Source of the DNA: a virus
Taxonomy: Duplodnaviria; Heunggongvirae; Uroviricota; Caudoviricetes
IMG/VR virus record: IMGVR_UViG_2609459860_000002
Coordinates: 1 to 8,929 of that record
Strand: one strand, 5' to 3'
Length of the DNA stretch: 8,929 nucleotides
A model generated the notes under the pieces. That model saw only the letters and a program-made list of their open reading frames with translations, was not told the DNA's origin and did no database searches. Below are positions 1 to 8,929 of this stretch, in pieces. Numbering within the stretch: the stretch's first letter is position 1; every line of letters begins with the position of its first letter. The translations under genes and the position numbers were made by a program.

Positions 1-153
1 CTGGATGACATCCGGGCGGGACGCATTGAGCGCGCCATTTCACGCTGTCGCAATATCTGGGCGTCCCTGCCGGGTGCCGGTTACGGTCAGCGTGAGCATT
101 CACTGGAAAAACTGGTCACCGTCTGGCGTACCGCTGGCGGCGTACCGGCTTAA
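1..153 (+). CDS. K: Endolysin (P2 gpK-like), 3' end only; 5' end lies outside the window
   Basis: Frame-1 reading frame open from the window edge to TAA at 151-153 (ends ...EHSLEKLVTVWRTAGGVPA). It sits immediately upstream of lysA/lysB/lysC, as K does in the P2 lysis cassette. The assignment rests on position and on my memory of P2 K, not on a search. The ORF-track entry 5..334 is a different frame and is not this gene. Confidence 0.55.
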   Translation: MDDIRAGRIERAISRCRNIWASLPGAGYGQREHSLEKLVTVWRTAGGVPA

Positions 154-167
154 ACGGAGTAAACACC

Positions 168-593
168 ATGAAGAAATTATCCCTTTCACTGATGCTGAAC
201 GTGTCGCTGGCGCTGATGCTGGCACTGTCCCTGATTTACCCGCAGAGCGTGGCCGTCAATTTTGTCGCTGCCTGGGCGATTCTGGCGACGGTTATCTGTG
301 TGGTTGCCGGTGGTGTCGGCGTGTATGCCACTGAGTATGTGCTGGAACGCTACGGGCGGGAGCTGCCGCCGGAATCGCTGGCCGTGAAGATTGTCACGGC
401 GCTGTTTTTGCAGCCGGTGCCGTGGCGCAGGCGGTCAGTGGCTCTGGTAGTGATGGTGGCGACGTTTATCTCGCTGGTCGCTGCCGGGTGGATTTTTACT
501 GCGCTGATTTATCTTGTGGCGTCGCTGTTTTTCCGGCTGATACGTACGGCCTGCCGTCAGCGTTTTGAGGGGCGGGAACCATGTCAAAGCTGA
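168..593 (+). CDS. lysA: LysA-like lysis accessory membrane protein (P2 LysA family)
   Basis: 141-aa ORF with a GGAG Shine-Dalgarno upstream (about 158-161). The protein is dominated by long hydrophobic stretches consistent with several transmembrane helices. Position between K and lysB matches P2. Confidence 0.8.
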   Translation: MKKLSLSLMLNVSLALMLALSLIYPQSVAVNFVAAWAILATVICVVAGGVGVYATEYVLERYGRELPPESLAVKIVTALFLQPVPWRRRSVALVVMVATFISLVAAGWIFTALIYLVASLFFRLIRTACRQRFEGREPCQS

Positions 594-1006
594 TGACTGT
601 GCTGGTTGTGTTGTTATCACTGGCGGTGGCCGGTCTGTTTCTGGTGAAACATAAAAATGCCAGCCTGCGCGCCTCGCTGGACAGGGCGAACAACGTCGCC
701 AGTGAACAGCAGACGACCATCACCATGCTGAAAAATCAGCTTCATGTTGCGCTCACCAGGGCAGACAAAAACGAGCTGGCGCAGGTGGCACTGCGTCAGG
801 AGCTGGAGAACGCCGCGAAGCGTGAAGCACAGCGCGAGAAAACCATCACGAGGTTACTGAATGAAAACGAAGATTTCCGCCGCTGGTACGGTGCTGACCT
901 GCCTGATGCTGTGCGCCGGTTGCACCAGCGCCCGGCCTGCGCAGACGCCAGTGATTGTCCACAACGCCTGCCCGAAAGTGAGTCTTTGCCCGATGCCGGG
1001 CAGTGA
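581..1006 (+). CDS. lysB: LysB, Rz-like inner-membrane spanin (i-spanin)
   Basis: 141-aa ORF overlapping the lysA 3' end by 13 nt. It has an N-terminal hydrophobic anchor (MSKLMTVLVVLLSLAVAGLFLV) followed by a charged, coiled-coil-like periplasmic region, which is typical Rz architecture. It contains lysC in another frame. Confidence 0.8.
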   Translation: MSKLMTVLVVLLSLAVAGLFLVKHKNASLRASLDRANNVASEQQTTITMLKNQLHVALTRADKNELAQVALRQELENAAKREAQREKTITRLLNENEDFRRWYGADLPDAVRRLHQRPACADASDCPQRLPESESLPDAGQ

Positions 1007-1151
1007 CCCGCAGACGAACGGCGATTTAAGTGCCGATATCCGGCAGCTTGAGAACGCGCTGGCACGCTGTGCCAGCCAGGTAAAAATGATTAAACACTGT
1101 CAGGACGAAAACGATGCTCAAACCCGACAGCCTGCGCAGGGCGCTGACTGA
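861..1151 (+). CDS. lysC: LysC, Rz1-like outer-membrane lipoprotein spanin (o-spanin)
   Basis: 96-aa ORF that starts inside lysB in a different frame and runs past the lysB stop into R. A GAGG Shine-Dalgarno sits about 6 nt upstream. The N-terminus is a signal-peptide-like segment ending in a lipobox-like LCAGC, followed by a proline-rich mature region (PAQTPVIV...CPMPGSDP), the hallmark of Rz1-type proteins. Confidence 0.75.
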   Translation: MKTKISAAGTVLTCLMLCAGCTSARPAQTPVIVHNACPKVSLCPMPGSDPQTNGDLSADIRQLENALARCASQVKMIKHCQDENDAQTRQPAQGAD

Positions 1152-1581
1152 TGCCGTCACGGTGCTGAAAACTAACCCCGATATGCTGCGGATATTCGTG
1201 GATAACGGGAGTATTGCCTCCACACTGGCGACGTCGCTGTCATTCGAAAAGCGTTACACGCTCAATGTCATTGTGACCGACTTTACCGGTGATTTTGACC
1301 TGCTCATTGTGCCGGTGCTGGCGTGGCTGCGGGAAAATCAGCCCGACATCATGACCACCGACGCAGGCCAGAAAAAGGGCTTCACATTTTATGCAGACAT
1401 CAACAATGACAGCAGCTTTGATATCAGTATCAGCCTGATGCTGACCGAGCGCACGCTGGTCAGTGAGGTGGACGGCGCGCTGCATGTGAAGAATATCCCG
1501 GAACCCCCGCCGCCGGAGCCGGTCAACCGCCCGATGGAGCTTTATATCAATGGCGAACTGGTGAGCAAGTGGGATGAATGA
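1114..1581 (+). CDS. R: Tail completion protein R (P2 gpR family)
   Basis: 155-aa ORF, the size I recall for P2 gpR, in the expected position after the lysis genes. Its stop overlaps the S start (ATGAATGA). Confidence 0.8.
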   Translation: MLKPDSLRRALTDAVTVLKTNPDMLRIFVDNGSIASTLATSLSFEKRYTLNVIVTDFTGDFDLLIVPVLAWLRENQPDIMTTDAGQKKGFTFYADINNDSSFDISISLMLTERTLVSEVDGALHVKNIPEPPPPEPVNRPMELYINGELVSKWDE

Positions 1582-2032
1582 GTTTAAGCGTTTTGAAGAC
1601 CGGCTGACCGGACTGATTGAGTCGCTGTCACCGTCAGGGCGTCGGCGACTGGCGGTAGATATTGCGAAGAAGCTGCGCCAGCGCCAGCAGCAGCGAATTA
1701 AATTACAAAAAGCCCCGGATGGTACGCCGTATGTACCGAGAAAAAACCAACCAGTACGAAATAAGAAAGGCCGGATAAAGCGGGAAATGTTTGTGAAATT
1801 ACGCACTAACCGGTTTATGAAAGCAACAGGTAGCGAGAGTGCGGCGGTGGTGGCGTTTGCCAGCGGAGTACAACGAATTGCGCGAGTACATCAATTAGGG
1901 CTTAGGGATAAGCCGGGGCGTAATAGTGCTGTGGTGGAATATCCTGTTCGTGAGTTATTTGGTTTTGACAAGGAATCTATACAATTGATAGAAAGGGAGT
2001 TATTAGTGATTCTATCGAAAGATGTTATATGA
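1574..2032 (+). CDS. S: Tail completion protein S (P2 gpS family)
   Basis: 152-aa ORF whose N-terminus (MNEFKRFEDRLTGLIESLSPSGRRRL...) matches my memory of P2 gpS. The last 40 or so codons (from about 1900) lie in AT-rich DNA continuous with the downstream insertion. Its TGA (2030-2032) overlaps the ATG of the next gene (ATGA). Confidence 0.8.
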   Translation: MNEFKRFEDRLTGLIESLSPSGRRRLAVDIAKKLRQRQQQRIKLQKAPDGTPYVPRKNQPVRNKKGRIKREMFVKLRTNRFMKATGSESAAVVAFASGVQRIARVHQLGLRDKPGRNSAVVEYPVRELFGFDKESIQLIERELLVILSKDVI

Positions 2033-2784
2033 GACGGGTGTTTGTGGATAAAAAGTTTTCCATTTTGAGAAAAAGAGTAAAGCATTCTCAAAAGAAAGTT
2101 ATGGATTGTATTATTGCTGACCATAATGCTGATATATGTGTGTTATGCGGGAGTTCTGACGATATTACTCGTGAGCACATTATTCCTCAGTGGGCCTTTG
2201 AGTCAAATGCTGAAAAATCTTTAATTAATAAAAAGAATAATCAGTCAACTCATTACATTAAAGCTACTGTACCAGCATGCAGAGTGTGCAATTCTGATTT
2301 GCTGGGAGCGTTTGAGTATAACCTGAAGAAATTTCTTACGGAAAAGAGGGGCGATGAGTTAACAGATTATGAATATGACTGCATCATATGGTGGTTGCAA
2401 TACATGGGCTTTAAGTTGCAATTAATGGATTTACGGACCCGCTTTCTCAGGTATAAAGGGGGGGATTATATCCCTTTCCTTGCAAACTTCCCGGTTGCAA
2501 TGTTTTGGGGGAATGTCGATACGACACCGGAGGATGTCTTCAGGATTATAAGAAAATCGCGACGCAATCTGATGTCGAAATGGAAGGATAAAAAACATAA
2601 TTCTTTGATGGTTTTTGAAACATCAAACAAGAGTTTTCATTTCTTTCATAAGGTTGATGAATTTATTTTTATTGAAATGCCTCAGGTTAAGAAGGCGTTT
2701 TTCTTCTTTTTTAATAAAGAATTTGACAGCCATGATTTAGCTCATGAGGAGTGTATGAAGATTATAGAGAAGTGCTACAACTAA
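2029..2784 (+). CDS. Low-GC cargo ('moron') protein with an N-terminal HNH (beta-beta-alpha-Me) nuclease-like domain and an uncharacterised C-terminal region; function unknown
   Basis: 251-aa ORF, the only long ORF on either strand of the AT-rich island. HNH signature by direct reading: C37-x2-C40-G ... E49-H50-I-I-P ... C84-x2-C87-N (CVLCGSSDDITREHIIPQW...PACRVCNSD), i.e. two CxxC zinc knuckles flanking an E-H-I-I-P catalytic-histidine motif. Hand-counted GC is about 27-38% in 60-nt samples against about 58% in V. The start at 2029 is chosen for the ATGA overlap with S; an internal ATG at 2101 (M25) is an alternative start. Confidence 0.75.
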   Translation: MRRVFVDKKFSILRKRVKHSQKKVMDCIIADHNADICVLCGSSDDITREHIIPQWAFESNAEKSLINKKNNQSTHYIKATVPACRVCNSDLLGAFEYNLKKFLTEKRGDELTDYEYDCIIWWLQYMGFKLQLMDLRTRFLRYKGGDYIPFLANFPVAMFWGNVDTTPEDVFRIIRKSRRNLMSKWKDKKHNSLMVFETSNKSFHFFHKVDEFIFIEMPQVKKAFFFFFNKEFDSHDLAHEECMKIIEKCYN

Positions 2785-2861
2785 TATTTATTATGTTGTA
2801 TCACAGCTGACAGAATCCTCCATGATTGCTGCTGGTATCATCCAGCGGCATCCTTCCCGTT
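2785..2861 (+). promoter_or_regulatory. Candidate late promoter for the V-W-J-I-H transcription unit (P2 P_V-like, Ogr/Delta-activated class)
   Basis: A 77-bp intergenic gap directly upstream of V. It contains an imperfect dyad TGT(2794-2796)-N13-ACA(2810-2812), resembling the TGT-N12-ACA activator element of P2-type late promoters, and a TATCAT -10-like hexamer at 2836-2841. The spacing is one base off consensus and no transcript data exist, so this is weak. Confidence 0.25.
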
Positions 2862-3497
2862 ATGAACACTCTCGCAAATATTCAGGAACTCGCGCGCGCA
2901 CTGCGCAACATGATTCGTACCGGCCTTGTCGTCGAAACCGACCTTAACGCCAGTCGCTGCCGTGTGCAGACCGGCGGCATGTGCACCGACTGGCTTCAGT
3001 GGCTGACCCATCGCGCCGGGCGTTCGCGCACATGGTGGGCACCTTCCGTGGGGGAACAGGTGCTGATTCTGTCCGTGGGCGGCGAACTCGACACGGCGTT
3101 TGTTCTGCCGGGGATTTATTCCGGCGATAACCCTGCGCCGTCTGCGTCGGCTGATGCCCTGCATATCCGTTTCCCTGACGGGGCGGTGATTGAGTATGAA
3201 CCCGAAACCAGTGCACTCACGGTAAGCGGAATTAAAACGGCCAGCGTGACGGCTTCTGATTCTGTTACTGCCACGGTGCCGGTGGTCATGGTGAAAGCAT
3301 CAACCCGCGTCACTCTGGACACGCCGGAGGTGGTCTGCACAAACAAGCTGATCACCGGCACGCTGGAAGTGCAGAAGGGCGGGACGATGCGCGGCAACAT
3401 TGAACACACCGGCGGTGAACTCTCATCAAACGGGAAGGTACTGCATACCCATAAACACCCCGGCGACAGCGGCGGCACAACCGGGAGTCCTCTATGA
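2862..3497 (+). CDS. V: Baseplate central spike protein V (P2 gpV family)
   Basis: 211 aa from ATG 2862 (MNTLANIQELARALRNMIRTG...HTHKHPGDSGGTTGSPL), matching my memory of P2 gpV in sequence and length. The ORF-track start at 2826 is a TTG in the same frame and is probably not the true start. The stop overlaps the W start (ATGA). Confidence 0.9.
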   Translation: MNTLANIQELARALRNMIRTGLVVETDLNASRCRVQTGGMCTDWLQWLTHRAGRSRTWWAPSVGEQVLILSVGGELDTAFVLPGIYSGDNPAPSASADALHIRFPDGAVIEYEPETSALTVSGIKTASVTASDSVTATVPVVMVKASTRVTLDTPEVVCTNKLITGTLEVQKGGTMRGNIEHTGGELSSNGKVLHTHKHPGDSGGTTGSPL

Positions 3498-3841
3498 CAG
3501 CGCGTTATCTCGGAATGAATCGCAGTGATGGCCTGACTGTCTCTGACCTTGAGCATATCAGCCAGGGTATCGGCGATATCCTGCGCACGCCGGTCGGCTC
3601 ACGGGTGATGCGTCGTGATTACGGCTCGTTGCTGGCGTCAATGATTGACCAGCCGCAGACCCCGGCGCTTGAGTTGCAGATTAAGGTCGCCTGTTACATG
3701 GCCGTGCTGAAATGGGAACCCCGCGTCACCCTGTCATCCGTCACCACGGCGCGCAGTTTTGACGGGCGAATGACGGTCACGTTAACCGGTCAGCACAACG
3801 ACACCGGCCAGCCACTTTCGTTAACCATCCATGTGAGTTGA
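3494..3841 (+). CDS. W: Baseplate wedge protein W (P2 gpW, T4 gp25-like)
   Basis: 115-aa ORF in the conserved position after V, translationally coupled to it (ATGA overlap). The size matches P2 gpW. Confidence 0.88.
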   Translation: MTARYLGMNRSDGLTVSDLEHISQGIGDILRTPVGSRVMRRDYGSLLASMIDQPQTPALELQIKVACYMAVLKWEPRVTLSSVTTARSFDGRMTVTLTGQHNDTGQPLSLTIHVS

Positions 3842-3845
3842 AACC

Positions 3846-4754
3846 ATGCCGATTATCGACCTGAACCAGCTACCCGCACCGGATGTGGTCGAGGAGCTGG
3901 ACTTTGAAACCATTCTTGCCGAACGCAAGGCGACACTGATTTCCCTTTACCCGGAAGACCAGCAGGAGGCGGTCGCCCGTACCCTGACGCTGGAATCTGA
4001 GCCTCTCGTCAAACTGCTGGAGGAAAATGCTTATCGTGAGCTTATCTGGCGTCAGCGTGTGAATGAGGCCGCACGGGCGGTGATGCTGGCTTGTGCCGCC
4101 GGTAATGACCTTGATGTGATTGGTGCCAATTACAACACCACGCGCCTGATTATCACCCCGGCAGATGATTCGACTATCCCGCCGACACCGGCAGTGATGG
4201 AGTCTGACACCGATTATCGTCTGCGTATTCAGCAGGCGTTTGAGGGCTTAAGCGTCGCCGGGTCGGTGGGAGCCTATCAGTATCATGGTCGCAGTGCCGA
4301 CGGGCGCGTCGCAGATATCTCTGTCACCAGTCCGTCTCCGGCCTGCGTCACCATCTCTGTGCTGTCACGTGAAAATAACGGCGTCGCATCCGAAGACCTG
4401 CTGGCCGTGGTGCGTAACGCCCTTAATGGCGAGGACGTCAGGCCGGTGGCCGACCGCGTGACCGTGCAGTCTGCCGCCATTGTTGAATATCAGATAAACG
4501 CCACGCTTTACCTTTACCCAGGTCCCGAAAGCGAACCCATCCGCGCTGCTGCCGTGAAAAAACTGGAAGCGTACATCACGGCACAGCACCGGCTTGGGCG
4601 CGACATCCGTCTGTCTGCCATTTATGCCGCTTTGCATGTGGAAGGCGTGCAGCGTGTCGAACTGACTGCACCTCTGGCTGACATCGTGCTCAACAGTACG
4701 CAGGCGTCTTTCTGTACTGAATACCGCGTCGTGACTGGAGGCTCGGATGAGTGA
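3846..4754 (+). CDS. J: Baseplate protein J (P2 gpJ, T4 gp6-like)
   Basis: 302-aa ORF in the conserved position after W. The size matches P2 gpJ. Its 3' end overlaps the I start by 8 nt. Confidence 0.88.
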   Translation: MPIIDLNQLPAPDVVEELDFETILAERKATLISLYPEDQQEAVARTLTLESEPLVKLLEENAYRELIWRQRVNEAARAVMLACAAGNDLDVIGANYNTTRLIITPADDSTIPPTPAVMESDTDYRLRIQQAFEGLSVAGSVGAYQYHGRSADGRVADISVTSPSPACVTISVLSRENNGVASEDLLAVVRNALNGEDVRPVADRVTVQSAAIVEYQINATLYLYPGPESEPIRAAAVKKLEAYITAQHRLGRDIRLSAIYAALHVEGVQRVELTAPLADIVLNSTQASFCTEYRVVTGGSDE

Positions 4755-5358
4755 TTCGCGCCTGCTGCCGACCGGCTCATCACCGCTTGAAGTCGCCGCC
4801 GCAAAAGCCTGTGCGGAAATTGAAAAAACGCCGGTCAGTATTCGTGAGCTGTGGAACCCGGATACCTGTCCGGCAAATCTGCTGCCGTGGCTGGCGTGGT
4901 CATTTTCGGTTGACCGCTGGGATGATAAGTGGCCGGAAGCGACAAAACGCGCTGTTATCCGCGATGCGTATTTCATTCACTGCCATAAGGGCACTATTGG
5001 TGCGATTCGCCGTGTGGTGGAGCCGCTCGGATATCTGATTGAGGTGAGGGAGTGGTGGCAGCTCAACGAGGAGCCGGGGACGTTCCGCATCGTTGTTGGC
5101 GTGCTTGAGCAGGGTATTACCGAGGAAATGTATCAGGAGCTGGAGCGCCTCGTTGCTGATGCAAAACCGGCGAGCCGCCATCTGACGGGACTGGCTATCA
5201 GTTTAAGTACAACCGGCAACATTTTTGCCGGTGCGGGATGCTATCACGGTGACGCCCTGACGGTTTATCCCTACACCCCGGAGGCCATTATTGTCGGAGG
5301 GGATTATTTCCCGGCCTCGGCCATTCATTTAATTGATAACCTGAGAGTAAACGCATGA
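4747..5358 (+). CDS. I: Baseplate protein I (P2 gpI family)
   Basis: 203-aa ORF between J and H in conserved synteny, with an ATGA overlap onto the H start. It is somewhat longer than the P2 gpI length I remember (about 176 aa), so the start codon choice is uncertain. Confidence 0.8.
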   Translation: MSDSRLLPTGSSPLEVAAAKACAEIEKTPVSIRELWNPDTCPANLLPWLAWSFSVDRWDDKWPEATKRAVIRDAYFIHCHKGTIGAIRRVVEPLGYLIEVREWWQLNEEPGTFRIVVGVLEQGITEEMYQELERLVADAKPASRHLTGLAISLSTTGNIFAGAGCYHGDALTVYPYTPEAIIVGGDYFPASAIHLIDNLRVNA

Positions 5359-6635
5359 CAGTGAAATACTACGCCATTCTGACTAATCAGGGCGCAGCAC
5401 GGCTGGCTAACGCGACGATGCTCGGCAGTAAGCTGAATCTGACGCAAATGGCCGTTGGTGATGCGAATGGTATCTTGCCGACACCAGACCCGGCACAGAC
5501 AAAACTGATTAATCAGAAACGCATTGCACCGCTGAATCTTCTGAGTGTTGACCCGAACAACCAGAGCCAGATTATTGCGGAGCAAATCATCCCTGAGAAC
5601 GAGGGCGGATTCTGGATCCGTGAGATTGGGCTTTATGATGATGAAGGCGTACTCATTGCGGTGGCGAACTGCCCGGAAACGTACAAACCGCAGTTGCAGG
5701 AAGGCAGTGGTCGTACCCAGACTATCCGCATGATTCTGGTTGTCACGAATACCGAAGCTATCACGCTGAAAATCGACCCGTCGGTGGTACTGGCGACCCG
5801 TAAATACGTGGATGATGAAGTCCTGGAATTAAGGCTGTATGTGGATGACCAAATGAGAAACCATATTGCCGCACAGGATCCTCATACCCAGTATGCACAG
5901 AAACATAATCCGACATTTACCGGAGAACCAAAAGCGCCGACGCCTGCTGCAGGAAATAACACCACGCGGATTGCGACCACTGCGTTTGTTCAGGCGGCTA
6001 TTACCGCTCTGATTAACGGTGCGCCTGCCACGCTGGATACACTGAAAGAAATTGCCGCAGCCATTAACAATGACCCGAAATTCAGCACCACCATTAACAA
6101 TGCGCTGGCAGGTAAACAACCGCTGGACAATACGCTGACTCATTTGAGTGGAAAGGATGTTGCCGGTCTTCTCGCATACCTTGGTTTGGGAGAAGCGGCA
6201 AAACGAAATGTGGGCAACGGGGAAAACCAAATCCCTGATATGTCTTTCTGGACGGTTACTGGTGGCAATGGAAATTTTGTGATTCGTCAACCTGACGGGC
6301 TAATCATTCAGATGGTTACTGTAAGTATAAGCGGTCCAGTGGCGATGAATGGAATGACTGATAATGCTTATGCCATTACAGGTTCTAATAAGTCTTATAT
6401 TGCCACAGCCACATTGCCCTTTGTATTTCCTAATAAGGTGCTGGGCGTTATCCCTCTGGTATCAACAACAGCTTATGGTGGTGTATCCAGTAATATTACA
6501 GGTTCATACGCGACGGCGGTTTGTTCTTTTGCCGCTGTCAGGGGGAATAATACGATTGTGTTCAAAGTCGACAAACCACTGAATGCAGCCTTTCCTTCAG
6601 ATACCAGCGTCTCAGCGTTAATCATTGGACGGTAA
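5355..6635 (+). CDS. H: Tail fiber protein H: conserved N-terminal baseplate-attachment region fused to a variable C-terminal tip in the currently expressed orientation
   Basis: 426-aa ORF whose N-terminus (MTVKYYAILTNQGAARLANA...) is the conserved P2 gpH start. GC drops to about 42% after roughly nt 6200. The 26-bp crossover site at 6169-6194 lies in frame within codons for LLAYLGLGE, so residues after about 280 are encoded inside the invertible segment. Confidence 0.9.
   Translation: MTVKYYAILTNQGAARLANATMLGSKLNLTQMAVGDANGILPTPDPAQTKLINQKRIAPLNLLSVDPNNQSQIIAEQIIPENEGGFWIREIGLYDDEGVLIAVANCPETYKPQLQEGSGRTQTIRMILVVTNTEAITLKIDPSVVLATRKYVDDEVLELRLYVDDQMRNHIAAQDPHTQYAQKHNPTFTGEPKAPTPAAGNNTTRIATTAFVQAAITALINGAPATLDTLKEIAAAINNDPKFSTTINNALAGKQPLDNTLTHLSGKDVAGLLAYLGLGEAAKRNVGNGENQIPDMSFWTVTGGNGNFVIRQPDGLIIQMVTVSISGPVAMNGMTDNAYAITGSNKSYIATATLPFVFPNKVLGVIPLVSTTAYGGVSSNITGSYATAVCSFAAVRGNNTIVFKVDKPLNAAFPSDTSVSALIIGR
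6169..6194. repeat. Left crossover site of the invertible tail-fiber segment (gix/cix/pix-like, 26 bp), inside H
   Basis: TTCTCGCATACCTTGGTTTGGGAGAA. Its partner at 8153-8178, read as reverse complement (TTTTCATAAACGTTGGTTTGGGAGAA), matches at 21 of 26 positions including the last 14 consecutive bases. The two sites are therefore in inverted orientation, as inversion requires. Confidence 0.75.
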
Positions 6636-6637
6636 GA

Positions 6638-7081
6638 ATGAACTCAGTATTCTTTTCACCCGGAAGTAAAAGTTTTTATCTGCAAGAATTGTTTCCAGAA
6701 TATGAGGATGCGGGAACGCTTCCTGATGATGTTATTGAAATTACCAGAGAAACATATGAGCAATTTCTTGGGCTGCATCCAGAAGGGAAAGAAATTGGCG
6801 CTGACAGTTCAGGACGACCAGTATGGATTAATTCCCCACCGCCTTCAAAAGAGGATGAGGTGCTGGCGGCTGAAATGAAAAAAATATCTTTGGTTTCAGA
6901 AGTCAATACCTACATCAATACCCATCAGTGGCCTGGCAAAGCTGCTATTGGTCGTCTGAAAGGTGACGAGCTGGAACAATATAATTTATGGCTGGATTAT
7001 CTGGACGCACTGGAACTGGTTGATATCTCCAGCGCTCCAGATATTGAATGGCCTACGCCTCCGGCAGTTCAGGCCAGATGA
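6638..7081 (+). CDS. G: Tail fiber assembly protein (Tfa, P2 gpG-like), partner of the currently expressed fiber tip
   Basis: 147-aa ORF directly after H. Its C-terminus (...LVDISSAPDIEWPTPP...) is the conserved Tfa C-terminal motif, also present in the opposing tfa' (...TDTSTAPDVIWPELPEA). Confidence 0.8.
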   Translation: MNSVFFSPGSKSFYLQELFPEYEDAGTLPDDVIEITRETYEQFLGLHPEGKEIGADSSGRPVWINSPPPSKEDEVLAAEMKKISLVSEVNTYINTHQWPGKAAIGRLKGDELEQYNLWLDYLDALELVDISSAPDIEWPTPPAVQAR

Positions 7082-7655
7082 CGTCCGGCGCTGTGCTGGT
7101 ATCTGTTGCCGTCACCGCGTCAATATAATCCAGCACAGCGTTAAGTCGGGTGTTTTCTGTCTGCATCAGCTTCCGCCCGGCCTGCAATTTCAGTTGAATC
7201 AGACTAATGGAAGCCATTGCAGTATCAATCAGTGACTGACGCTGTGCTTCTGCCGCGCCTACTGCGGCGCTATGCTGTGCCTCAGTATCGGTCACCCATT
7301 TCTCACCATCCCATTTATCGTATGGCGTTAACGGGGCGATAGTGGTTGTATTTTCAGGATAATCACCCGGAGCTGTGATTTCTTTCGATTCTCCTGTTTC
7401 GGTGCTATAGATGATTTCACCGCGATGGTCTGGCACATATTCCCATGAGTTAAAATCTGCAGAACGGCAGATTGCATAACCAGCTTTATGTGTAACTGGT
7501 GTATCTAAACAAGAACATGCCGGGATACCGACGCCAACCGCAAGATATTCAGTTGATGTGGAAATATATTCCCGTGTTTCACCATCATAATTATAAATGG
7601 TAATGACTCCCGCTTTTATGGCAATGAGTTCGTTATTTAATACGGCTTTATTCAT
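7053..7655 (-). CDS. Alternate tail fiber assembly protein (Tfa'), cognate to the inverted fiber tip
   Basis: 200-aa ORF on the - strand with the Tfa-type C-terminal motif. Its 3' end overlaps the + strand tfa 3' end by 29 bp (7053-7081). Its ATG overlaps the stop of the upstream - strand fiber-tip segment (TGATG). Confidence 0.82.
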   Translation of the reverse strand: MNKAVLNNELIAIKAGVITIYNYDGETREYISTSTEYLAVGVGIPACSCLDTPVTHKAGYAICRSADFNSWEYVPDHRGEIIYSTETGESKEITAPGDYPENTTTIAPLTPYDKWDGEKWVTDTEAQHSAAVGAAEAQRQSLIDTAMASISLIQLKLQAGRKLMQTENTRLNAVLDYIDAVTATDTSTAPDVIWPELPEA

Positions 7656-7657
7656 CA

Positions 7658-8167
7658 GGCAGCCCTCACGATATAATTAAAGGCAATGTTACGAGGACGG
7701 TTTTCGTTTGCAGTTGGAACAATTCTTGAAGCATCAAGGCCAATCACTTTTGGGTAAACAGCGCCATCTGTTCTTTCTGTCACCATACTTCTGATTAAGG
7801 AGAAATAACTATTGTTCGTTGAGGGGTTCAAAGGCACCACTGCCCCCTTAAAAGAGCCTGCTGATTCCCATATTGAATAATTTTCGGTGTTTACAGTCTT
7901 GAACTCACCATAGATATTACGTATGGCATCGCCCTGAGCTGATAATATTGTTCTCCCCGCATCCGCACTACGCCCATCATCCCAGCCACGAATAAATTCA
8001 CCGCGTAAATCAGGCAATTTATTTGTCGGGTAAGCCTTTGCCAGTTCCGGGTATTCTTCAGCAGAAAAAGCTGCTCCGTTGCATTTCAGCCAGCCTGTTG
8101 GCGGAGTGGCTGAGGGCCACGGAACAGGCACCCCAACAGGTAATGCAGAGCCTTCTCCCAAACCAAC
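7658..8167 (-). CDS. Alternate tail-fiber C-terminal tip (H', promoterless and startless; expressed only after inversion fuses it to the H N-terminal region)
   Basis: The - strand frame is open through the right crossover site, encoding ...VGLGEGSALPVGVPVPWPSATPPTGWLKCNG...NIAFNYIVRAA. The ending NIAFNYIVR(L/A)A is the canonical C-terminus of P2 H / Mu S-type fibers as I recall them. The ORF-track Met codons at 8201-8206 lie beyond the crossover and are not a real start. Confidence 0.82.
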
Positions 8168-8178
8168 GTTTATGAAAA
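8153..8178. repeat. Right crossover site of the invertible segment (26 bp)
   Basis: TTCTCCCAAACCAACGTTTATGAAAA, located about 55 bp upstream of the invertase start. Its left half-site TTCTCCCAAACC is the reverse complement of the right half-site of the 6169-6194 site. It closely resembles cix/gix-type sites from memory. Confidence 0.75.
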
Positions 8179-8233
8179 TGCAGAGATAACGGCTAACTGG
8201 CATCATCTCCGGTTTTTATTCAGGGGATCCATC

Positions 8234-8827
8234 ATGCTTATTGGCTATGTCCGCGTATCAACAAATGACCAGAACACGGAATTGCAGCGTAACGCGCTGG
8301 AATGCGCGGGATGTGAGCGGATTTTTGAGGACAAAATCAGCGGCACGAAGTCCGACAGGCCGGGACTGAAAAAACTGCTCAGGACATTATCGGATGGGGA
8401 TACACTGGTAGTCTGGAAGCTGGACCGGCTGGGGCGTAGTATGCGGCATCTGGTCATTCTAGTTGAGGAACTGCGCGAACGTGGCATTAATTTTCGCAGC
8501 CTGACGGATGCTATTGATACCAGCACGCCGATGGGGCGTTTTTTCTTTCATGTGATGGGTGCCCTGGCTGAAATGGAGCGAGAACTCATTGTCGAGCGGA
8601 CACGCGCCGGACTGGAAGCGGCCAGAGCCAAAGGTCGTATTGGTGGCAGACGTCCGAAACTCACCGCGAGTGAGTGGGAGCAGGTCGGACGGTTGCTGGC
8701 TGCGGGGGAATCTCGTCAACGCGTGGCGCTGATTTTTGATATTGGCCTGTCCACGCTCTATAAAAAATTCCCCTCATCAGCGACAAAGAATAAATTGTGT
8801 CATCCCTTAGCCAACCGGGACAAATAG
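8234..8827 (+). CDS. Serine DNA invertase, Gin/Pin/Cin/Hin family
   Basis: 197-aa ORF beginning MLIGYVRVSTNDQNT..., with the catalytic Ser at residue 9 (TCA, 8258-8260). It carries conserved invertase blocks (GDTLVVWKLDRLGRSM, GINFRSLTD, MGRFFFHVMGALAEMERELI, RIGGRRPKLT) and a C-terminal helix-turn-helix region (...RVALIFDIGLSTLYKK). An AGGGGA Shine-Dalgarno lies upstream. I cannot tell from sequence alone which named invertase it is closest to. Confidence 0.92.
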   Translation: MLIGYVRVSTNDQNTELQRNALECAGCERIFEDKISGTKSDRPGLKKLLRTLSDGDTLVVWKLDRLGRSMRHLVILVEELRERGINFRSLTDAIDTSTPMGRFFFHVMGALAEMERELIVERTRAGLEAARAKGRIGGRRPKLTASEWEQVGRLLAAGESRQRVALIFDIGLSTLYKKFPSSATKNKLCHPLANRDK

Positions 8828-8886
8828 CCTGACATCTCCGGCACAACTGAAAATACCACTCACCCATTAACCACGGAGTTAAACGG

Positions 8887-8929
8887 ATGAGTGACTATCA
8901 TCACGGCGTGCAGGTGCTGGAGATTAACG
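8887..8929 (+). CDS. FI: Tail sheath protein FI (P2 gpFI family), first 14 codons only; continues beyond the window
   Basis: ATG at 8887 preceded by a GGAG Shine-Dalgarno (8874-8877). It encodes MSDYHHGVQVLEIN, which matches my memory of the P2 FI N-terminus. It is too short for the ORF track. Confidence 0.6.
   Translation, partial: MSDYHHGVQVLEIN

Follow-up and report, generated by a model that had tools for sequence, protein, structure and literature searches.

The 8,929-nucleotide stretch analysed here (the window; positions 1 to 8,929 of IMG/VR record IMGVR_UViG_2609459860_000002) very probably carries a two-state inversion switch of the Din type (Gin/Cin/Pin/Hin), by which a P2-type (Peduovirus) prophage can alternate between two tail-fibre tips. 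A mechanism of the Mu G, P1 C or e14 P type had been proposed for this DNA by an earlier examination made without database searches (the sequence-only reading), and it is now supported by component parts that all lie in register, by a homologue of Gin and Pin, and by relatives that occur in both orientations. The features of the module are collected in Table 1.

Table 1. Features of the tail-fibre inversion module (window coordinates)
Feature	Position	Strand	Length	Remarks
Constant N-terminal part of H	5355-6182	+	~276 codons	used in both orientations
Left crossover site	6169-6194		26 bp	inside H; pix/gix-like, 12-TT-12; central dinucleotide 6181-6182
Invertible segment	6183-8164		1982 bp	between the central dinucleotides; from the in silico flip
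Tip A	6183-6635	+	150 aa	variable H C-terminus, in the orientation of the window
tfa	6638-7081	+	147 aa	tip A assembly chaperone; PF02413 Caudo_TAP, E 7.6e-28
tfa'	7053-7655	-	200 aa	tip B chaperone; PF02413, E 6.6e-31
Tip B	7655-8164	-	169 codons	silent alternative H C-terminus; PF07484 Collar domain, E 8e-16
Right crossover site	8153-8178		26 bp	before the invertase gene; central dinucleotide 8165-8166, AA on the + strand
Invertase	8234-8827	+	197 aa	serine DNA invertase, Gin/Cin/Pin/Hin subfamily; PF00239 Resolvase, E 1.8e-52; PF02796 HTH_7
Putative recombinational enhancer	8252-8319			putatively Fis-dependent; 5' end of the invertase gene; assigned by position

The gene order surrounding the module, R-S-V-W-J-I-H...FI, is that of a P2-type (Peduovirus) late tail operon, and the closest genome is annotated as P2-family. 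The operon is apparently complete, with V, W, J, I, H and FI intact. Across V-W-J-I (2862-5183) the window shares 94.4% nucleotide identity with P2 (NC_001895), the amino acid identities being 96% for V, 97% for W, 99% for J and 82% for I, while the pF promoter region and the start of FI (8807-8929) are 99% identical to P2. Elsewhere in the window, an AT-rich open reading frame (2029-2784) displayed a sub-threshold Pfam match to HNH_5 and falls in a PHROGs family of unknown function; PADLOC, NCBIfam and PDB sequence searches with this frame returned no match.

The H reading frame extends from 5355 to 6635. Its constant part matches the PF12571 Phage_tail_fib N-terminal domain (Pfam, E 4e-62) and shows 42% amino acid identity to residues 27-256 of P2 H; residues 184-266 resemble part of P7 S, although the tips of the two proteins differ. 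Megablast matches to other P2-like H genes end at 6195. Open reading frames and Pfam domains place tip A and tfa on the plus strand and tfa' and tip B on the minus strand, as the sequence-only reading had it. Tip A yields a weak, sub-threshold Pfam match to Gp53-like_C, and in RefSeq relatives that carry this cassette on the silent strand it is annotated as 'gp53-like domain-containing protein'; the accompanying Tfa is 56% identical to e14 TfaP at the amino acid level. The second cassette is also e14-like: Tfa' shares 89.5% amino acid identity with e14 TfaE, and tip B 56% with e14 StfE, the first 78 and last 15 residues being almost identical. The two chaperone genes converge with an overlap of 29 bp, identical in size to that of e14 tfaP and tfaE. 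Tip B and Tfa' were also considered as a pair resembling P2 H and G, and this was rejected: both are StfE/TfaE-like, tip B exhibits no significant similarity to P2 H, and Tfa' matches P2 G weakly (E 0.006). A PADLOC search with tip B and the invertase found no match.

Both crossover sites are read in frame on the same peptide, as had been claimed: H reads ...LLAYLGLGEAAK at the left site, and the minus-strand frame reads ...NVGLGEGSAL. The predicted outcome of inversion, a fibre of about 445 residues ending in NIAFNYIVRAA with tfa' directly downstream, was reproduced by an in silico flip, which gives an in-frame H of exactly 445 residues with this C-terminus and a stop codon that overlaps the tfa' start codon as TGATG. 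The H variants are therefore 426 (tip A) and 445 (tip B) residues long, with two Caudo_TAP genes, one per tip. The tips are unrelated in sequence (Gp53-like versus Collar domain), which is consistent with different adsorption specificities, and possibly different host ranges, for the two orientations.

The crossover sites, which the sequence-only reading had described as two inverted 26-bp sequences, form the top inverted pair reported by a repeat finder for the window (arms 6169-6195 and 8152-8178; 27 nt, 81% complementary, 1956 nt apart). Since further inverted pairs of 20-27 nt and 74-84% occur in the window, repeat length and identity are not decisive for the pair. The left 26-mer is TTCTCGCATACC TT GGTTTGGGAGAA and the right, in reverse complement, is TTTTCATAAACG TT GGTTTGGGAGAA; they are identical at 21 of 26 positions, including all of the inner 14 nt. 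Both are imperfect 12-2-12 dyads, inverted relative to each other, and their half-sites (TTCTCGCATACC, TTCTCCCAAACC twice, and TTTTCATAAACG) fit the family half-site (TTnTCnnAAACC). The Din-type pattern TTHTCNNAWACSNNSGTWTNNGADAA has two matches in the window, namely these sites, with 0 mismatches (chance expectation 0.00-0.01, 200 shuffles); because the two sites had already been seen when it was drawn up, independent confirmation comes from e14, to whose sites the right one is identical at 26/26 positions and the left at 23/26. On these sequence comparisons, it is the motif match, which is decisive, and the e14 identity that single out the pair; general inverted-repeat statistics do not do so strongly.

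When aligned with known sites, as had been suggested, both fall in register with Mu gix, P7 cix and e14 pix, and the left site shares its register and its reading frame with Mu gixL and P7 cix. The left sequence is also identical to the left inversion endpoint in L002-L005. From coordinates, the centre of the right site lies 68.5 bp from the invertase ATG, a distance that is equal in e14 and 67.5 bp in Mu. The central dinucleotide is shared and asymmetric, being TT at the left site and AA (TT on the other strand) at the right. In the Din family, identical asymmetric central dinucleotides permit religation only after inversion. A pattern search of the window at 2 or 3 mismatches revealed no third site and, because the sites number only two, the module is a two-state switch and not a shufflon of the kind seen in one EPEC P2-like prophage.

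The invertase is 80% identical to Mu Gin and 86% identical to e14 PinE at the amino acid level, and it matches the PDB entry for Gin (3uj3) at E 2.9e-94; in NCBIfam, its serine-recombinase matches were all sub-threshold. Its reading frame is intact and possesses the features of a Din-family serine recombinase: the resolvase catalytic domain, the active-site Ser9 within the catalytic motif YVRVSTNDQ, and a C-terminal helix-turn-helix. Within the gene, positions 8252-8319 align with nucleotides 19-86 of cin, annotated as the enhancer in P7. A strict Fis-consensus 15-mer at gene nucleotides 71-85 is common to the window invertase, gin, cin and pinE, and a second 15-mer of the form G-N13-C can be read at nucleotides 22-36. 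Synonymous-site conservation across seven invertase genes is 0.48 in the putative enhancer, barely higher than the 0.42 of the rest of the gene, and does not distinguish constraint on the DNA from constraint on the catalytic motif encoded there. By its position, the segment is a candidate enhancer, probably bound by Fis, on which inversion may depend.

Natural relatives carry the switch in both orientations. Among related E. coli genomes at a coverage of at least 80%, 23 match the query as it stands and 47 match the flipped query. The closest complete genome, that of E. coli BroCaecum-55 (98.6% identity over 5355-8929), has the orientation of the window. Within each of two isolate pairs, MEI2O1-23/MEI1A-0323 and 23CRST031/23CRST027, the locus is 99.9-100% identical apart from the inversion. 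An inner half-site of the 23CRST pair is polymorphic (A/G), and the variant base travels with the segment, so that the exchange falls within 6181-6190, an interval that includes the central TT. In close relatives of the window module, the segment thus inverts with exchange at the site centres.

Such orientation differences could, in principle, stem from RecA-dependent recombination at short inverted repeats, or from horizontal swapping of cassettes at a mosaic joint. Megablast matches to unrelated phages indeed stop exactly at the sites (6195; 8174-8178), so that the sites are mosaic joints, and tfa and tfa' share further short inverted repeats in their C-terminal coding parts. However, the inverted repeat shared by the sites spans only 14-15 bp, shorter than efficient RecA recombination usually requires. 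The confinement of the exchange to a 10-bp interval holding the site centre, the clean inversion that alone separates near-clonal isolates, and the dedicated invertase adjoining its cognate sites render this explanation hardly credible.

Site-specific inversion being the preferred reading, the question arises as to whether the window copy may have become locked. The window itself shows a single orientation. No sigma-70-like promoter was detected by a promoter scan just upstream of the invertase gene, and the promoter and terminator scan, with counts near those of shuffled sequence, offered no usable signal for expression of the invertase. In the MEI strains, furthermore, the invertase is a pseudogene. 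One might propose, on these grounds, that the copy has kept the anatomy of a switch and no longer inverts, owing to weak or absent invertase expression or to drift in the outer half-sites, and displays tip A only. We consider this very unlikely. The window invertase is intact, with its catalytic Ser9 motif and close identity to PinE, and both sites match the family pattern perfectly. The left 26-mer of the window recurs at the left site of 23CRST031 and the right 26-mer at the right site of 23CRST027, so all outer half-sites match those that served as inversion endpoints in this pair; the 23CRST031 invertase is likewise intact and identical to that of the window at 190 of 197 residues. Moreover, Din invertases also act in trans, as indicated by the MEI pair and by the action of PinQ on e14 (PMC12529663), and a dead gene need not lock the segment. 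The window copy is accordingly expected to be active as a switch.

Comparison with characterized systems places the module closest to the e14 P segment of E. coli K-12 (stfP-tfaP / tfaE-stfE / pinE), which has the same gene order and strands and inverts experimentally (PMC4272514, PMC12529663). However, the constant fibre part of e14, a defective lambdoid element, is a different one, whereas the window module is joined to a P2-type H N-terminus within an intact P2 late operon, and tip A is unrelated to StfP. The Mu G segment and Gin share the architecture (Sc-Sv-U / U'-Sv' / gin), and the Mu fibre gene likewise contains its site, read in the frame that gives the LGL-x-E peptide. The Mu sites align in register as 26-bp 12-2-12 dyads, but Mu has perfect inverted repeats of 34 bp and a TC/GA core, and DNA similarity between Mu and the window was found in the invertase gene only. 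The cix sites of the P1/P7 C segment (Cin) have a TT core like those of the window; P7 cin, unlike the window gene, stands on the opposite side of its segment, with cixL at its 3' end. The segments also differ in size: ~3 kb in Mu, ~4 kb in P1/P7 and 2 kb in the window.

Reference P2 (NC_001895) lacks an invertase; it encodes a 669-residue H and one G, and its fun(Z) lies on the opposite strand. This confirms the fixed H-G pair on which the sequence-only reading had based its view that this prophage gained a switch. The lack of an invertase in P2 stands; the direction of change could be either. P2 H contains one lone gix-like sequence, TTATCGAATATCTCGGTTTACAGGAA, for which no partner was found in a 13-kb stretch from S to T. 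Because of this apparent relic, the P2 lineage may as readily have lost the switch as the lineage of the window gained it.

Nor is the arrangement novel, as had been implied, given that an invertase is a common and previously described feature of P2-like phages and prophages. Escherichia phage pro483 and Salmonella phage SEN8 have the identical placement, with H - tfa / tfa' - tip' / invertase directly before FI, and in pro483 both sites are identical to those of the window (93% nucleotide identity over 73% of the region). Escherichia phage P88 has the same cassette layout, although its invertase is followed by opposite-strand tail genes and not by FI. The window differs from these invertase-bearing Peduoviridae only in its particular tip A/Tfa cassette and in small sequence changes. 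Inversion has been observed in P2-like prophages of EPEC E2348/69 (PMC4272514) and between the LT2 and LT7 copies of Salmonella phage Fels-2, which carries fin (PMC7953296), and one survey remarks that the P2 Z/fun hotspot often holds an invertase with inverted neighbouring genes (bioRxiv 10.1101/2024.10.15.618418). In complete E. coli genomes, ~550 of 5426 have the invertase adjoining a P2-type sheath gene. The observation is confirmed, but the switch is ordinary and already known: the module is annotated and documented in many P2-like phages and is present in about one in ten complete E. coli genomes.

Close kinship to the e14 P segment in tfa', tip B, the invertase and the sites introduces another possible role. 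Following PinQ-driven inversion, e14 StfE2 reportedly masks host receptors and blocks superinfecting phages (PMC12529663), and such a receptor-masking tip protein, produced by inversion in the lysogen, might be the main selected function of the window module as well. This strikes us as most improbable: the late operon around the module is P2-type, apparently complete and ordered like that of the inducible phages pro483 and SEN8, H expression is expected solely from the Ogr-dependent late promoter, and the silent-cassette reading frame, which mechanically extends from tip B to an ATG at 8206, has a GGAG directly abutting that ATG, a poor spacing for a ribosome-binding site. The more modest proposal, that the switch would additionally serve in the lysogen as an anti-phage device activated by the resident invertase or by another of the Pin type acting in trans, has homology as its sole support and is highly doubtful; if true, a common P2-prophage module would be part of host defence.

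For the preferred reading, a two-state switch of the virion fibre, the following mechanism may be envisaged. Invertase dimers would bind both 26-bp sites, and these would come together with the putative enhancer early in the invertase coding sequence, to which Fis probably binds. The enzyme would cut both sites at the central TT/AA, rotate subunits by 180 degrees and religate, inverting the segment. In the window orientation, the late V operon would yield H(1-276) joined to tip A, together with Tfa; in the opposite orientation, it would yield H(1-276) joined to tip B, together with Tfa', the tfa' gene being translationally coupled. A lysogen population would hence release two virion types with differing receptor specificity.

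The module is a bet-hedging host-range switch of the textbook kind, in a phage family that has been sampled well, and carries little weight as a discovery. It does bear on how these phages are annotated and compared. The 183-residue 'phage tail protein' frame on the minus strand is the silent cassette and not a stand-alone gene, the H gene product varies with segment orientation, and prophage assemblies may differ by inversion in a manner devoid of phylogenetic meaning. For phage engineering and for the typing of P2-like prophages, the pairs of tip and chaperone constitute natural, exchangeable receptor-binding modules with their joints at the 26-bp sites.

The ORF list and a comparison with reference P2 place the window in the late tail region of a P2-type prophage (see the table below). 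The V, W, J and I proteins share 96%, 97%, 99% and 82% identity, respectively, with those of P2. At the DNA level, 2862-5183 is 94.4% identical to P2, and 8807-8929, covering the pF promoter region and the start of FI, is 99% identical, while between 5183 and 8807 P2 homology is replaced by other sequence.

Features of the late tail region and the inversion module
Feature	Position	Strand	Basis or remark
Lysis genes	before R		ORF list, comparison with P2
R	1114-1581		
S	1574-2032		
AT-rich extra ORF	2029-2784	+	
V	P2 homology starts 2862, gene end 3497		
W	3494-3841		
J	3846-4754		
I	4747-5358		
H	5355-6635		followed by the region under study
tfa, tail-fibre assembly	6638-7081	+	Caudo_TAP domain match
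tfa', tail-fibre assembly	7053-7655	-	Caudo_TAP domain match
Tip B ORF	7655-8206	-	phage tail Collar domain
Serine recombinase (invertase)	8234-8827	+	resolvase domain and HTH_7
FI (sheath), start only	ATG at 8888		

The extra ORF encodes 251 aa at about 36% GC, against roughly 58% in its surroundings, and occupies the S-V interval; at this place, P2 has orf30, a non-essential gene encoded on the other strand. The start codon of the extra ORF shares bases with the stop codon of S (ATGA). PHROG 10503 (function unknown) matches it over its full length; Pfam returned only a sub-threshold HNH_5 match around a CxxC...H motif, and PADLOC, NCBIfam and PDB sequence searches gave no match. Matches to at least 80% of window 1-5354 occur in at least 87 complete E. 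coli genomes, and among the matches listed this ORF is covered and annotated as hypothetical. It may be a moron or a defence gene. In the spacer ahead of V, 2794-2813 (ATGTTGTATCACAGCTGACA) is similar to the site in P2 pV to which the activator Ogr binds (ATGTTGTCTGGTAGTTCTACA), the remainder of the spacer being unlike P2.

The top inverted pair of the repeat finder, with arms at 6169-6195 and 8152-8178, corresponds to the two 26-bp inverted sites described in the sequence-only reading. The left site is TTCTCGCATACC-TT-GGTTTGGGAGAA and the right site, as reverse complement, TTTTCATAAACG-TT-GGTTTGGGAGAA; both are imperfect 12-2-12 dyads, identical to each other at 21 of 26 positions. Length and identity alone are unconvincing, since further inverted pairs (20-27 nt, 74-84%) occur in the window; the weight lies with the motif. 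A degenerate Din-type site pattern matched exactly these two sites without mismatch (chance expectation 0.00-0.01), and no third such site was found in the window with up to three mismatches allowed. This pattern had been drawn up with knowledge of the window sites, so independent evidence has to come from characterised systems. Indeed, when aligned with gix, cix and pix, as had been proposed, the sites fall in register with Mu gixL/gixR and P7 cixL/cixR, while in the e14 P segment the right-hand site is identical to the window right site (26/26) and the left-hand site agrees with the window left site at 23/26. The reading frame across the site is also alike in Mu S (...NLGLQE...) and window H (...YLGLGE...). 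The sites coincide, furthermore, with joints at which unrelated phages are horizontally mosaic: megablast alignments with H genes of other P2-like phages stop at 6195, and those with stf/tfa of Klebsiella phages and of the lambdoid phages HK97 and HK106 stop at 8174-8178.

The N-terminal fibre domain of H is of P2 type (PF12571, E 4e-62). The recombinase shares 80% identity with Mu Gin, 86% with e14 PinE and 78% with P7 Cin, matches the sequence of the Gin crystal structure (E 2.9e-94) and contains the active-site motif YVRVSTNDQ. Flipping 6183-8164 in silico yields an H of exactly 445 aa ending NIAFNYIVRAA, whose stop codon overlaps the tfa' ATG; the earlier estimate of about 445 aa, with tfa' directly downstream, was correct. 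The e14 TfaE is 89.5% identical to the tfa' product, StfE is 56% identical to tip B with nearly identical ends, and pinE shares 86% DNA identity with the window invertase gene. The 29-bp convergent overlap of the e14 chaperone genes tfaP/tfaE recurs in tfa/tfa' (7053-7081), and both modules place the invertase ATG 68.5 bp from the site centre, versus 67.5 bp in Mu. Judged by sequence, the whole right half of the region is an e14-type P-segment module. A mainly host-defence role, such as that of PinQ/StfE2 of e14 (PMC12529663), seems improbable for it. The homologous C-terminal parts of tfa and tfa' (LDYLDA/LDYIDA) give rise to short mid-segment inverted repeats (I13 and I4; 6991-7008/7117-7134 and 7089-7140).

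Din invertases require, in cis, an enhancer to which Fis binds; in gin, cin and hin, it lies within the 5' part of the recombinase gene. For Hin, this enhancer is documented (PMC3798978); the P7 annotation puts it at cin nt 19-86, the aligned counterpart of which, window 8252-8319, is a putative enhancer that would make inversion Fis-dependent. The window gene, gin, cin and pinE all have a strict Fis-consensus 15-mer at nt 71-85, and there is a G-N13-C 15-mer at nt 22-36. Synonymous-site conservation across seven invertase genes is 0.48 in this stretch and 0.42 in the rest of the gene, and the stretch also encodes the catalytic motif, so the assignment stays one of homology.

Inversion has occurred naturally in relatives. 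At coverage of at least 80%, complete E. coli genomes matched the region as is in 23 cases and the flipped query in 47. Two near-identical isolate pairs, each from one study (MEI2O1-23/MEI1A-0323 and 23CRST031/23CRST027), are 99.9-100% identical across 6.5-7.1 kb of the locus, bar the inverted segment between the sites. The window 26-mers recur in the second pair, the left site in 23CRST031 and the right one in 23CRST027, and hence all outer half-sites of this pair match the window. An A/G polymorphism in one inner half-site travels with the segment, which limits the exchange to window 6181-6190, central TT included. This is the footprint that a serine invertase should leave when it cuts at the central dinucleotide, and RecA recombination acting on a 14-15-bp repeat would be expected to leave a different one; RecA or mosaic exchange in place of site-specific recombination is therefore very improbable. 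In both MEI isolates, the adjoining invertase is a pseudogene (locus 4916-5541) through a tandem duplication, with LVVW*SGS occurring twice. The segment is nevertheless inverted between them, suggesting that another Pin-type invertase encoded in the genome acted in trans. Between right site and invertase, these prophages have an additional 318-nt ORF, and their outer right half-site differs.

The layout H - tfa / tfa' - tip' / invertase recurs in pro483 (Peduovirus), SEN8 (Felsduovirus) and P88 (Xuanwuvirus), all classified in the Peduoviridae. Both pro483 sites are identical to those of the window, and the invertase immediately precedes FI in pro483 and SEN8, and adjoins it in a Yersinia Peduoviridae phage. 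Inversion has been measured in P2-like prophages of EPEC E2348/69, among them a shufflon variant with three sites (PMC4272514); Fels-2 of LT2 and LT7 differs by such an inversion, adjoining fin (PMC7953296); and a recent survey often saw a DNA invertase with inverted neighbour genes at the P2 Z/fun hotspot (bioRxiv 10.1101/2024.10.15.618418). The junction of invertase 3' end and P2-type FI is present in 550 of 5426 complete E. coli genomes. The genome nearest to the window is 98.6% identical across the whole region in the same orientation. The switch is thus of a known kind, and public genomes contain near-identical copies of it, contrary to the rarity implied earlier. In the window, the invertase C-terminus is extended by 16 residues relative to PinE (8779-8827), and the codons at its very end run into the conserved site at which the activator Ogr binds the P2 late promoter pF (8795-8823; TTGTG...GGGACAA). 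P2 identity restarts within the 3' end of the gene, so that the recombinase gene is butted directly on the F-operon promoter.

In agreement with the sequence-only reading, the H of reference P2 (669 aa) is fixed, G is single and an invertase is absent; fun(Z) lies on the other strand. Its H nevertheless holds a lone gix-like 26-mer, TTATCGAATATCTCGGTTTACAGGAA (4858-4883 of the NC_001895 stretch compared), which is 23/26 identical to Mu gix and encodes ...EYLGLQE...; neither a partner site nor an invertase was found in the 13-kb stretch from S to T. This 26-mer is probably a relic of, or an entry point for, an invertible module. Hence, the P2 lineage may have lost the switch rather than the window prophage having gained one; the switch of the sequence-only reading stands, while its direction of change may be either.

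The window switch is real, complete and very probably active, and a locked relic that no longer inverts is unlikely. We consider a two-state tail-fibre tip switch the most likely mechanism, with high confidence. Late transcription of the V operon would run through H; the window orientation would give virions bearing H(1-276), the constant N-terminal part, joined to tip A and folded with the aid of Tfa, and the inverted orientation virions with H(1-276) and tip B, aided by Tfa'. The tips presumably differ in receptor specificity, and a lysogen culture would release both virion types mixed, thereby hedging host range.
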